Numbered from the stretch's first letter, positions 49,827 to 63,986 are shown. The stretch is 64,000 nucleotides of DNA from Candidatus Omnitrophota bacterium (GCA_043742785.1 JAYTXU010000002.1:9707-73706); one strand, 5' to 3'. Numbers and translations: made by a program. The notes: generated by a model from the letters alone, not told the origin.

Positions 49827-49860
49827 GTTCATAGTACATAGTGAACTATGTACTATGAAC
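49827..49860. terminator. Perfect 15-bp hairpin between convergent genes (candidate bidirectional terminator / repeated palindromic element)
   Basis: GTTCATAGTACATAG (49827-49841), loop TGAA, CTATGTACTATGAAC (49846-49860). The right arm contains the stop codon of the minus-strand gene 49846..51078. The stem is AT-rich, so terminator strength is uncertain. Confidence 0.45.
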
Positions 49861-51078
49861 TTTCGGAAACGGAAACAGGAAGGACCCTCCGCTTTTCAAA
49901 AACCTTTTTTCTCGAGCTAAAATGTTCTTCTTAAAATGCCAGGGCAATACCAAATAAACATCGGGTTTGCGAAAACTGGCTTCTTTTTGGGAAATAATAG
50001 GTATCTTTGTTCCTGGGCAAAAACGCCCCCATTTATCTTCATTGATCTCTGCCATAAACGAAATTTCTTTTGATGTCAGCCCACAAAACTGCAGCAAAAC
50101 ATTTCCCTTGGTCGATGCCCCGTAACCTGCGATGGTTTTCCCTTTGGAAATCAGCTGATTAATTCTCTGGAGCAACTCTTGACGATGCTTTAAAATATTT
50201 TTAGAAAAATCTTTAAGTCTTTTTTCATCCTGCTTTTCGACCTTGATAATTGTTTCAACCTCTGCCTTAACCTCACGAAAAGAGGAGTCCTTGTGAGCCA
50301 ACATCACCCTTAAACTACCCCCATTGATTGTATTAAAACTGCAGCTGACAATTTTTAAGCAAACCTTATCTGCCAGCCATTTAATTGAGCTCAAACCATA
50401 GTAGGTGGCATGTTCGTGACAGATAGCATCATAGCTATTCTTTTTTAACATAGCGGGCCTATAGCCCTGTTCCAGCACTAGAACGCCCTCTTTGGCCAGA
50501 GAGTCTTGCACCTTCTTAAGAAAAGATACGGGGTCATTGAAATCGTAAAGAACCGCCACCGCCATAATCAGCTTGGCTTTGCCTAATTTGCTTTTAAACG
50601 TTTTCTTAGGGAAAAAATCCTCAATAACCTTGATCGATGGGTGATAATGTTTTTTAAACTTACCGACGAGAGGATCGATGCCTATAAGATTTAAATCCTT
50701 TCCACAAAAAGCTTCAAGCAGGGTTCCGTCATTGCTGCCGATATCGATAACCGTGTCTTTCTCTTTAAGCTGAACAAAGCTTCCAACCGCTTTAGCCAAT
50801 CTTTTCAGATGACTCTTCATGCTTTCATTAAGACCTGAACGATACCCGTAGCTGTTCCCAAAAAGAAGCTTAGGATCAAAAGAGTTTTTTAATTGAAGCA
50901 GACCACAAACTTTCTTAGGATCACCCTGACAAACCACAAGCTCCAGTGGCCCTTGAGGTACTTTTTCATTTTTAGTTTTTGGGAAAATACCTGTCAACGC
51001 CATCGTACCTAGATTACAAATGGATACCAGTTGAGTGTTGTGACAGATACGGCAGACTTTAATAGGCTTGATGGTCAT
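49846..51078 (-). CDS. SAM-dependent C-methyltransferase (NDP-sugar C-methyltransferase type, TylCIII-like)
   Basis: The N-terminus is a Cys-rich zinc-ribbon-like segment, KVCRICHNTQLVSICNLGTMALTGIFP. SAM motif I is TVIDIGSNDGTLLEAF. The C-terminal segment TIAGYGASTKGNVLLQFCGL is typical of the C-methyltransferase C-terminal domain. Confidence 0.75.
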   Translation of the reverse strand: MTIKPIKVCRICHNTQLVSICNLGTMALTGIFPKTKNEKVPQGPLELVVCQGDPKKVCGLLQLKNSFDPKLLFGNSYGYRSGLNESMKSHLKRLAKAVGSFVQLKEKDTVIDIGSNDGTLLEAFCGKDLNLIGIDPLVGKFKKHYHPSIKVIEDFFPKKTFKSKLGKAKLIMAVAVLYDFNDPVSFLKKVQDSLAKEGVLVLEQGYRPAMLKKNSYDAICHEHATYYGLSSIKWLADKVCLKIVSCSFNTINGGSLRVMLAHKDSSFREVKAEVETIIKVEKQDEKRLKDFSKNILKHRQELLQRINQLISKGKTIAGYGASTKGNVLLQFCGLTSKEISFMAEINEDKWGRFCPGTKIPIISQKEASFRKPDVYLVLPWHFKKNILAREKRFLKSGGSFLFPFPKVHST

Positions 51079-63400: not shown

Positions 63401-63986
63401 CATTGTCTTTAAAACCCCATCGACCATTACCGTCCCAATCAAAACGATCTGGAAGATTGACAGGGTCTGTTGATAATGACTGCTGCCCTGACATGATTCC
63501 TGCCTCTTGAAATCGATTAGAAACAGTCAAATTTTGAGACAGCTTATTCCACATCTCAAACATCCCCGGCATAATGACACAATATTGCATAATGCCGGCA
63601 TACAGCATCATAGCCGTTACTAAAATAATCATGGCAATACACCATGGAGTCCCCGCCCCCCATGTAACAATTATTATAATAACCATAACAATCCAAACAA
63701 GAACAAGTAAGAATACTCCCAATGATTTATGCACATACTGGAGATTCCCTCCGTTCCATTTAACCTTACTTCCATATCGTAAAATCAAGCTCTCCCACAT
63801 CACCCTCTCACCATAACTCGCAAAATTTGAAGCTACTGAAGAAGCCGAACTGGTTGCCGCCATCCAAGTAGTCATTTTCCAATTAGCCGTCTTACTCCAA
63901 TTCATCTCAATGGCATAAAAAATAAATGCCACGGCTAGTATTATGATCATGATCAGGGCTGCTTGTCCTTTACGACTCTTTAACAT
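60429..63986 (-). CDS. Large TadG-like membrane-anchored, Cys-rich extracellular protein (1185 aa)
   Basis: The N-terminus RKGQAALIMIIILAVAFIFYAIEMNW resembles the TadE/G-like N-terminal motif. More TM helices follow (LGVFLLVLVWIVMVIIIIVTW, CIAMIILVTAMMLYAGIM). About 1000 aa then contain many Cys and no motif I recognise. AAGGAAG lies before the ATG at 63986. Confidence 0.5.
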   Translation of the reverse strand: MLKSRKGQAALIMIIILAVAFIFYAIEMNWSKTANWKMTTWMAATSSASSVASNFASYGERVMWESLILRYGSKVKWNGGNLQYVHKSLGVFLLVLVWIVMVIIIIVTWGAGTPWCIAMIILVTAMMLYAGIMQYCVIMPGMFEMWNKLSQNLTVSNRFQEAGIMSGQQSLSTDPVNLPDRFDWDGNGRWGFKDNGFPKDKTSRYGLYYSERMKLLKPPDTSAYEAFRKALDNLVKKPYSVDLNTISGLGFDSYCTSSGKVINNRAPQCDSQCTGIEDRPSNGGNVQYVPSQCLNACQGSTCPPVVDSRPLIYDPSLELPPPGNPFIPNPLIPGDQANSFRSRLGHDDEIGKSLNYNTANVPITDSNEPGYNPDNAKGIVFPMLNQMASLWQDNGFGKVNGADNPGLSTYAMMVVGATANTDNALLQPTDPFLAKEDDCAMGKDSASGFFWKKGADRYCSDTLSAQEETALITAYPGVFSTQAHPKHWPYNECAYMLNANGQFLNCPNVSGNLWPQDRLDGFVYKLSELIYLNKFLQSLDGNTLITSASQWYGQVSSFIAPQCTAAACLNYNNACLDSCDGAQECIDTCNSPDLKCTGSTGAPLDTYLKNLPELNLPQSSYNNFASDAAACNPSGQGYMAQWVYDLDNWQQKLDAWQKKSFGTSTDLCSGTLENIVSCLNNNKIYVDELTACKKDFPVSSPAIGTTVDLKASCVDLIRLEQHDTVVPFRFFTSFTRKNYDTMYNPVVTIPTVPAVIVAPYSIDDKEYAVLKAWLEDNSLLKSTVSQRYDHLNKLNTNAKATVILFQEGRDDFKKFLEGPAVLLMAAQGEVDESIKTIKRLPGFEIYGWKDEGKNSSSGVKQGGMWHISRTEVKSHTELPYIKIKSKTGFFITKTYYTFTDGNHDVLTRATRWDENTTGGQASFANKIPIWRFIYGNPAPLQYSNITGEGISPDDVTDIAAAITEAKGDEGRAIEDNCIGTPILSPWGKGIGLTKDTRTNLKANGLLSTTSDEAKSYQGAFMINIDPRMKIPDPQQYYGDCSSLSPTSYKDNSLDSCKTRSDFFTVCCTSLTGTRWNYGQDYCLKTNKSRCEKNIQNQQLYKEKENLLKCFVVADYLLNTGVQSIASAHYGVPDKGKIDPTITEWHEQVSFSSPRLARHGKRADGVTKLSVGSFDKVHTLLDTDIY

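Follow-up and report, generated by a model that had tools for sequence, protein, structure and literature searches.

Canonical Tad/Flp (type IVc) pilus loci include flp-tadV-rcpCAB-tadZABCDEFG of Aggregatibacter and cpa of Caulobacter. A locus conserved across the phylum Omnitrophota has been described that contains gspD, gspE, gspF, rcpC, a Rotamase_2 peptidyl-prolyl isomerase (PPIase) gene and many small class-III-signal-peptide genes, and it was termed a secretion system (West-Roberts et al. 2023, bioRxiv 10.1101/2023.11.21.568195). Secretion or pilus genes flanked 13 of 14 giant genes in another study, which also found mobile-element flanks (bioRxiv 10.64898/2026.06.07.730766). Seymour et al. 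(2023, PMC10066038) treated Tad complexes and giant open reading frames (ORFs) as markers of symbiosis, placed Omnitrophota TadB/C with Bdellovibrionales and RcpA with predatory myxobacteria and Lysobacter, and reported expression of the Omnitrophota Tad system in V. archaeovorus co-culture. As Tad-like machines of (putative) predators, these loci resemble the Tad genes of Bdellovibrio and the Kil apparatus of Myxococcus xanthus, which kills prey in a contact-dependent manner (Seef et al. 2021, PMC8460266); unlike the Omnitrophota locus, Kil has no known giant gene partner. Here we analyzed a 64,000-nucleotide stretch of a Candidatus Omnitrophota genome (GCA_043742785.1, JAYTXU010000002.1:9707-73706), referred to below as the window, in which Tad-type genes, a pathway for a modified amino sugar and a giant gene lie close together and had suggested one cell-surface attachment or attack system in a first-pass annotation. 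We consider it likely that the locus instead combines two modules of different history, namely the known Tad-giant arrangement and a lineage-specific glycan module inserted into the variable spacer between tadC and the giant gene.

Eleven minus-strand ORFs were confirmed at 49846-63986, on the strand of the giant ORF, as had been annotated. The four at the 5' end form the Tad-like block and are listed here with the giant gene.

60429..63986, minus strand: membrane protein of 1185 aa, rich in Cys; its N-terminus is pilin-like (KGQAALIM) but has no Glu at +5, and another two hydrophobic helices follow
60031..60429, minus strand: pilin-like protein of the Flp/class-III type, 132 aa; carries the DG/ASTIEY prepilin motif and a C-terminal domain rich in Cys
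59147..60004, minus strand: platform protein of the TadB type, one T2SSF domain (Pfam, 2.6e-17)
58238..59143, minus strand: platform protein of the TadC type, one T2SSF domain (Pfam, 3.5e-16); the final gene of the conserved Tad-like block
1..46971, minus strand: 5' part of the giant gene, whose stop-free frame exceeds 15,657 codons within the window

The stop-free frame of the giant gene covers 1..46974 (15,658 codons) and continues past the start of the window. Its most upstream ATG lies at 46971 and would give a protein starting MDKNEEK, with a membrane helix at about residues 107-130 followed by a Peptidase_C39-like domain (Pfam, 4.6e-10; window 45800-46100, minus strand; about residues 298-374). 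An N-terminal C39 domain in giant proteins was already noted by West-Roberts et al. (2023, bioRxiv 10.1101/2023.11.21.568195).

Profile searches found one T2SSF domain each in the TadB and TadC proteins and so bore out their annotation. TadC had 1725 homologs, the best of them 57-72% identical, and several top matches are named TadC or tight adherence protein C (JGI) or bear NCBI Omnitrophota/Omnitrophica names. The Flp-like label of the 132-aa protein held in part: the motif is present, but the Flp_Fap score (E=0.054, 13.8 bits) fell under the 32.2-bit cut-off, and classical Flp lacks the Cys-rich C-terminal domain. The 1185-aa protein had been called TadG-like, and this label was not supported. 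Pfam searches at E<=10, run with the complete protein and with residues 1-100, gave no match, nor did NCBIfam or phmmer against the PDB, and an AlphaFold2 model built from a 14-sequence alignment (predicted local distance difference test, pLDDT, 61.7) gave no Foldseek match in the PDB at E<=0.001. The pilin-like character of its N-terminus was judged by eye. It has only 14 homologs, every one named hypothetical. In the related loci homologs lie just 5' of the flp132-TadB-TadC genes, and the protein is a conserved member of the Omnitrophota Tad-like locus.

Beyond position 64000, where a TadA/CpaF ATPase had been expected, the locus could be followed on a Logan contig (L001) that is 100% identical to window positions 57593-64000 and extends 9,631 nt further. 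Its genes are, in order, an OmpW-like fragment, a 718-aa TadZ::TadA, a DUF192 protein, a 402-aa protein, seven small pilin-like proteins, a 553-aa protein, a 76-aa protein and the 1185-aa gene. The predicted ATPase is present there as a TadZ::TadA(CpaF) fusion of 718 aa with CbiA/ParA/AAA_31 and T2SSE domains, 6.6-8.8 kb past the window end. An AAA ATPase gene inside the window was rejected as the missing TadA; its domains are AAA_14+DUF4143, it matches PADLOC PDC-S01, and the true TadZ::TadA is that of L001.

In the seven small L001 proteins, a GQSTVEY-type motif comes after a short, basic leader; the 553-aa protein contains GQAIMEI, and the 76-aa protein contains GQATIEF and has a weak TadE match. 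A prepilin motif with Y, F or I at its last position was found in the 132-aa gene of the window and in nine of ten further pilin-like genes of L001. Only one gene passed a Pfam pilin cut-off (Class_IIIsignal, 28.2 bits vs 23.7).

Related loci were sought among metagenome contigs with TadZ::TadA as the query. The conserved CpaF pattern drew mostly generic Tad loci, and L011-L015 alone were informative. A Secretin+TonB_C fusion gene lies directly 5' of tadZA in L011, L012 and L015, whose TadZA proteins are 49-53% identical, and L011 carries RcpC and a Rotamase_2 PPIase further 5'. The fusion (L011 4149-5759; L012 2-781; L015 2-1348; Secretin 3.5e-41, TonB_C 3.5e-16) is unusual for RcpA/GspD-type secretins. 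At the corresponding place on L001, directly 5' of tadZ::tadA, positions 2-754 encode an OmpW-like beta-barrel fragment (ending ...GMQF), and the contig stops here.

Compared with the locus of West-Roberts et al., the window and L001 share two gspF/T2SSF genes, a gspE-type ATPase gene and small class-III-signal genes 5' of a co-oriented giant gene with N-terminal C39; the secretin, rcpC and Rotamase_2 PPIase are shared through the related loci L011, L012 and L015. Likeness to canonical Tad loci lies in the single-T2SSF TadB and TadC, the CpaF/TadA ATPase with a ParA-like TadZ/CpaE, the G/XXXXEY pilin motifs and, in related loci, RcpC and the secretin. Unlike canonical Tad loci, the Omnitrophota locus has its pilin block between tadA and tadB, TadZ fused to TadA, a secretin fused to TonB_C and some 11 pilin-like genes, several of them encoding large C-terminal domains. 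Neither TadD, TadG nor TadV was recognized.

The pairing of the Tad block with the giant gene was compared across seven related loci for which DNA was available.

L006: spacer after tadC 0.39 kb, giant gene 16,812 aa
L008: spacer after tadC 3.5 kb, giant gene 19,166 aa
L009: spacer after tadC 1.5 kb, giant gene 39,654 aa
L010: spacer after tadC 0.45 kb, giant gene 2,401 + 15,268 aa (frameshift-prone assembly)
L095: spacer after tadC 1.9 kb, giant gene 17,400 aa
L096: spacer after tadC 2.1 kb, giant gene 28,907 aa
L091/L092: spacer after tadC 6.0 kb, giant gene at least 10,802 aa

TadB and TadC were followed by a co-oriented giant gene in all seven, with giant N-termini 38-51% identical to that of the window over 360-515 aa. 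The complete order of pilins, 553-like, 76-like, 1185-like and 132-like genes, TadB and TadC was kept in six; L096 retains only the 1185-like and 132-like genes, TadB and TadC. TadB orthologs were 56-74% identical to that of the window. Orthologs of the 132-aa protein (54-59% identical in L006, L008, L009 and L091; 35-43% in L095 and L096) lie 5' of tadB in every related locus, directly adjoining it except in L096. An eighth context (P0003), available without DNA, is consistent with the pairing; the 896-aa ORF at its contig end is a candidate giant-gene N-terminus. Generic Tad loci from other bacteria have contiguous tadA-tadB-tadC and no giant gene. The linkage of a Tad-type apparatus to the giant gene is real, conserved and specific.

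The window comes from a metagenomic contig, and a close homolog of one of its radical-SAM genes (L002) is labelled Planctomycetales, as might be seen if the adjacency of these genes were due to chance or to an assembly or binning artefact. The independent Logan assembly L001, however, has the identical junction between tadC and the radical-SAM gene, base for base, and the arrangement recurs in seven other assemblies (NCBI, ENA, JGI, Logan). This recurrence effectively refutes an artefact, which we regard as extremely unlikely. The Tad-giant pairing is already in the literature and its confirmation adds little novelty. Its fixed synteny most likely reflects co-regulation of the Tad genes with the giant gene and supports treating the pair as one co-regulated predation or attachment apparatus.

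The second module begins 27 nt after tadC and consists of six genes.

56753..58210, minus strand: B12-dependent radical-SAM enzyme, paralog 1, 485 aa, with B12-binding and Radical_SAM domains; first cassette gene
54829..56760, minus strand: B12-dependent radical-SAM enzyme, paralog 2, 643 aa, with a fused C-terminal multi-helix membrane domain of about 160 aa
54194..54829, minus strand: S-adenosylmethionine (SAM)-dependent methyltransferase, 211 aa, weak profile signal
53098..54213, minus strand: DegT-family pyridoxal-phosphate-dependent nucleotide-sugar aminotransferase (Pfam DegT_DnrJ_EryC1, 3e-118)
52400..53101, minus strand: short family 2 glycosyltransferase (GT2), 233 aa, of the polyprenyl-phosphate-sugar synthase type (Glycos_transf_2, 1.5e-32)
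49846..51078, minus strand: predicted nucleoside diphosphate (NDP)-hexose 3-C-methyltransferase of the TylC3/TcaB9 family (Methyltransf_13, Methyltransf_23, Methyltransf_14)

Most of the enzyme names given to this module in the first-pass annotation were borne out. Both radical-SAM paralogs contain PF02310 and PF04055, with the motifs CIFDCSYC (paralog 1) and CNFNCSYC (paralog 2) at residue 186, and they are 71% identical to one another. Paralog 1 has a weak PDB match to AprD4 (1.4e-11). Every NCBIfam score against the equivalog models (HpnJ, ApyD, BchE and others) was 4-7 times under the cut-off, with HpnJ at 116-134 bits vs 578, and a hopanoid (HpnJ), BchE or ribosomally synthesized peptide (RiPP) system was rejected on this ground. 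The families of the aminotransferase and the GT2 were confirmed by their Pfam matches. The best solved relative of the former is perosamine synthetase (3bn1, 2e-70); the latter matches the P. furiosus Dol-P-Man synthase (5mlz, 3.5e-25, residues 4-220) and ArnC (9.5e-14). The C-methyltransferase was likewise confirmed, with domain scores of 8.6e-14, 7.7e-14 and 1.5e-46 for the three families in the order listed and a full-length match to TylC3 (4rv9, 3e-55, residues 2-406), and it is predicted to be an NDP-hexose 3-C-methyltransferase of the TylC3/TcaB9 type. The 211-aa methyltransferase is less certain, as its own Methyltransf_23 match is below the Pfam threshold (E 0.0024) and a CpaM-like model (2.8e-9) is also under its cut-off, but its ortholog in locus L094 matches Methyltransf_23 at 4e-13.

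The cassette resembles the Arn (ArnB/ArnC), Dol-P/Und-P-sugar and TylC3/TcaB9 pathways in pairing a DegT aminotransferase (perosamine synthetase/ArnB-like) with a GT2 like Dol-P-Man synthase (DPMS) or ArnC and a 3-C-methyltransferase. Unlike these pathways, it includes one or two B12-radical-SAM enzymes and a membrane protein of no matched family, and it encodes no dehydratase, nucleotidyltransferase, flippase or GT-C transferase. The GT2 is also short, at 233 aa against 322-374 aa in the matched DPMS and ArnC chains, which leaves little room for a C-terminal membrane anchor. The membrane protein of about 160 aa is fused to the radical-SAM enzyme in the window (54829-55350) and to the methyltransferase in L094 (5586-6653), and stands free in L091 (11505-12002, 165 aa) and L003 (4632-5189, 186 aa). 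Such variable fusion is Rosetta-stone evidence that the three activities are linked at the membrane. The domain has no Pfam family, and a single-sequence AlphaFold2 model of it from the 643-aa enzyme (pLDDT 59.5, predicted template modelling score 0.32) was too poor for a structure search.

Unlike the Tad block, the cassette was not conserved. It was not present in six of the seven related Tad-giant loci (L006, L008, L009, L010, L095, L096), and the arrangement of the window is shared with L091/L092 only, where the single radical-SAM enzyme is 78% identical to paralog 1, TadC 72% and the 3-C-methyltransferase 51%. The order in L091/L092 is TadC, a 25-nt gap, the radical-SAM gene, the 165-aa transmembrane protein, the methyltransferase, DegT, GT2, the C-methyltransferase, a 286-nt gap and the giant gene. 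Elsewhere, homologs lie away from Tad genes: L003 carries radical-SAM, methyltransferase, DegT and GT2 genes (50-60% identical), L094 has serS followed by a radical-SAM gene, a fusion of the membrane protein with the methyltransferase, DegT and GT2, and the radical-SAM gene adjoins truA in L002 and stands by itself in L093. A genome-contig search with the 485-aa radical-SAM enzyme returned 3 loci only, one of them a distant archaeal paralog cluster. In a neighbor-joining tree of TadC, two loci that have no cassette, P0003 (79% identical to L091) and L006, were placed between the two cassette-bearing loci. The cassette is patchily distributed, through losses or repeated capture, and the suggested three-way linkage of Tad genes, sugar pathway and giant gene is not a conserved one.

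Compared with L091, the lineage of the window has a duplicated radical-SAM gene with one copy fused to the transmembrane protein, an AAA_14 gene gained in the gap between the GT2 and C-methyltransferase genes (no such gene lies there in L091), and a gained plus-strand block of toxin-antitoxin and helix-turn-helix (HTH)-phosphoribosyltransferase genes. The spacer is accordingly long: unlike those of the six cassette-less relatives (0.4-3.5 kb), it measures 11.3 kb and holds the cassette, the AAA_14 gene, the HTH-phosphoribosyltransferase gene and two toxin-antitoxin pairs. A B12-radical-SAM/aminosugar cassette in the spacer of one lineage is a new point; a term search of the two bioRxiv preprints (10.1101/2023.11.21.568195 and 10.64898/2026.06.07.730766) found no report of aminotransferase, glycosyltransferase or radical-SAM genes in giant-gene flanks.

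Small overlaps among the eleven genes had suggested a single operon running up to the giant gene. In transcription order the intergenic distances are -1, 26, 3, 27, -8, -1, -20, -4, 97 and 24 nt. The close packing (-20 to 27 nt) is real from the 1185-aa gene through the GT2 gene; it is broken by the 97-nt gap before the AAA_14 gene and by opposite-strand genes before the giant gene. The run does not lie directly upstream of the giant gene, as five plus-strand genes (BrnT, an ORF in the BrnA position, the HTH-phosphoribosyltransferase gene, a ribbon-helix-helix antitoxin and ParE) occupy the intervening 2.9 kb (46975-49845). Any transcript that continued as far as the giant gene would thus run antisense to these five. 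Consensus matching alone identified promoter-like sites at 47074->47047, just 5' of the giant gene, and at 52347->52320, in the 97-nt gap 5' of the AAA_14 gene (11/12 match), and these candidate sites are compatible with separate transcription units. In the window, the eleven-gene run and the giant gene do not form one operon. An Rfam scan of the whole window gave no match within 47-64 kb.

If the Tad genes, the amino-sugar pathway and the giant gene were one surface attachment or attack system, the modified sugar from the cassette would glycosylate the Flp-like pilins or those parts of the giant protein that lie outside the cell. The close packing from the 1185-aa gene to the GT2 gene speaks for this, as do the GT2 itself, which is of the polyprenyl-phosphate-sugar synthase type found in periplasmic glycosylation, the L094 cassette near N_methyl pilin genes, and L091/L092, where pilins, TadBC, cassette and giant gene are co-oriented and the other strand is empty. 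Set against it are the six of seven related Tad-giant loci without a cassette, the homologs beside housekeeping genes elsewhere (serS in L094, truA in L002), the five opposite-strand genes between cassette and giant gene in the window, and the enzyme content of the cassette, which encodes no oligosaccharyltransferase or GT-C transferase. We judge such a three-part system unlikely. Of the unified system proposed in the first-pass annotation, the Tad-giant link stands and the sugar pathway as a conserved third part does not.

A narrower form is that the tad operon of one subclade captured the module. Pilus genes and module (in L091/L092 the giant gene as well) would then share a transcript, and a polyprenyl-linked, C-methylated 4-amino sugar would be supplied for Flp-like pilins or exposed stretches of the giant protein, a dedicated glycan decoration of a predation apparatus. 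This, too, seems improbable to us, and we are equally doubtful that the cassette glycosylates pilins or the giant protein at all, for which the L091 arrangement and the proximity of the L094 cassette to N_methyl pilin genes are the backing. Its distribution points rather to a general envelope glycan or lipid as the acceptor. Were the module to decorate pilins or the giant protein, selection by prey or phage on a surface structure would account for its repeated gain or loss, and the module would give access to surface variation in an uncultured predator; otherwise it would be ordinary envelope-glycan cargo.

Several observations weigh against our reading of two modules of different history. The L091/L092 genes, from pilins through cassette to giant gene, are all co-oriented with no opposite-strand, AAA_14 or toxin-antitoxin genes among them, and this, with the gaps of 25 and 286 nt, would fit both co-transcription and a genuine functional link. 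The cassette follows tadC by 25-27 nt in two loci whose TadC proteins are just 72% identical, and the same site in both suggests retention or repeated capture. Three of four small genes at L094 570-2572 carry N_methyl type-IV prepilin motifs and lie one gene (serS) 5' of the cassette homolog; this second, independent proximity to minor-pilin genes may be due to chance. The TadC tree is a single-protein neighbor-joining tree and is weak, and about nine loci were sampled. The remaining predictions for the DNA past position 64000, a secretin and a prepilin peptidase, fared less well than that of the ATPase: neither secretin nor RcpC was found in the 9.6 kb past the window end on L001, the secretin being seen only in the related loci L011, L012 and L015, and no Peptidase_A24 prepilin peptidase match was obtained among the ORFs scanned on L001 and related loci.

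With these points weighed, we continue to prefer two modules of different history and propose the following model. Module 1 (58238-63986) would be the distal part of a Tad-like (type IVc / type II secretion system (T2SS)-like) machine specific to Omnitrophota. When the genes of this organism are combined with those of relatives, the complete machine would comprise, from the 5' side, the PPIase, RcpC, secretin-TonB_C, TadZ::TadA, DUF192 and a protein of about 400 aa, followed by 7-9 small Flp/class-III-type pilins, the minor-pilin-like proteins of 553, 76 and 1185 aa, one more Flp-like pilin, TadB and TadC. A TadZ::TadA/TadB/TadC motor most likely builds a short heteropolymeric Flp-type fibre of about 8 small pilins through the secretin, with the 553-, 76- and 1185-aa proteins capping or priming it. 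Most likely, by analogy with Kil (PMC8460266), the fibre would contact prey or host cells, an interface at which the giant protein, anchored in the membrane, would act as well.

The main alternative for the role of the Tad block is that it is a T2SS-like pseudopilus piston, which would use the secretin to export or display the giant protein or fragments cleaved from it, rather than an adhesive pilus. Strict synteny and co-orientation with the giant gene in all seven related loci with DNA are in keeping with a piston. So are the many distinct pilin-like subunits and three large minor-pilin-like proteins, which resemble T2SS major and minor pseudopilins, and the N-terminal C39 peptidase-like domain of the giant protein, which could free fragments; West-Roberts et al. 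also term the locus a secretion system. The single-T2SSF TadB and TadC and the CpaF/TadA-like ATPase with its fused TadZ are, however, hallmarks of Tad pili and not of T2SS, and the many membrane helices and SecA-like domains of giant proteins, as described by West-Roberts et al. (2023, bioRxiv 10.1101/2023.11.21.568195), point to Sec-type insertion. We regard the piston as somewhat unlikely and retain the Tad-type fibre.

Module 2 (52400-58210 and 49846-51078) would be a portable cassette of radical-SAM enzyme, membrane protein, methyltransferase, DegT aminotransferase, GT2 and 3-C-methyltransferase. By homology, an NDP-keto-sugar may be aminated by DegT and C-methylated by the TylC3-like and B12-radical-SAM enzymes to yield a C-methylated 4-amino sugar, which the DPMS/ArnC-like GT2 would load onto polyprenyl phosphate at the membrane. 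We propose that the cassette was inserted into the variable tadC-giant spacer in the lineage of the window, where the radical-SAM gene would have undergone duplication and one of the copies fusion with the membrane-protein gene. Other genes taken up by this spacer would be the AAA_14/DUF4143 gene, two toxin-antitoxin pairs and the HTH-phosphoribosyltransferase gene, as listed here.

51103..52302, minus strand: AAA_14+DUF4143 ATPase (Pfam; PADLOC PDC-S01, 2e-21)
49492-49815, plus strand: ParE toxin (ParE_toxin, 2.4e-10), convergent with the cassette
49296-49538, plus strand: ribbon-helix-helix (RHH) antitoxin (Pfam RHH_5, 2e-7), convergent with the cassette
48174..49151, plus strand: winged-HTH and phosphoribosyltransferase protein, 325 aa (Pfam HTH_5, Pribosyltran)
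47820-48104, plus strand: ORF in the BrnA position, overlapping BrnT, assigned by position only
47618-47893, plus strand: BrnT toxin (BrnT_toxin, 8e-21)

The spacers of the relatives varied in the same manner. Those of L006 and L010 held no genes; L008 had AAA_14/DUF4143, an HTH-phosphoribosyltransferase ortholog and MazE, L009 an IS200, L095 an AbiEii and L096 an AAA_14/DUF4143. Accessory cargo of several kinds (toxin-antitoxin pairs, Abi, IS200, AAA_14/DUF4143) makes the tadC-giant spacer a hot spot, which is a further new point. The AAA_14/DUF4143 genes of L008 and L096 are unrelated paralogs of the window gene. The latter had been annotated as an AAA ATPase of the operon; its AAA_14+DUF4143 domains agree with the name, but it is a PADLOC candidate (PDC-S01) rather than a pathway or pilus ATPase. 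It is probably a separately inserted accessory or defence-candidate gene that lies outside both the pilus and the sugar pathway.

The HTH-phosphoribosyltransferase protein matched PADLOC PsyrT (1e-13) and ShosT (1e-5). Its ortholog in L008 (12270-13241, minus strand; 66.6% identical) has the same position and orientation. The protein may regulate the giant gene in the manner of PurR instead of serving as a PsyrT/ShosT-like defence effector. In L008, too, the gene points away from the giant gene and comes after a toxin-antitoxin pair, and the 66.6% identity between the two loci exceeds the TadC identity for the same loci (60%).

Within the giant gene, a tRNA-Val with the unusual anticodon AAC lies antisense at 27007-27082 (plus strand). 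A tRNA search of the first 5-10 kb of the seven related giant genes found none. The tRNA is well formed (Rfam RF00005, 54.4 bits, E 6e-9, with ARAGORN in agreement), and the frame of the giant ORF stays open across the site (...FKAPQAGFEPASVSSLRRGSIQLSYRGDLGF...).

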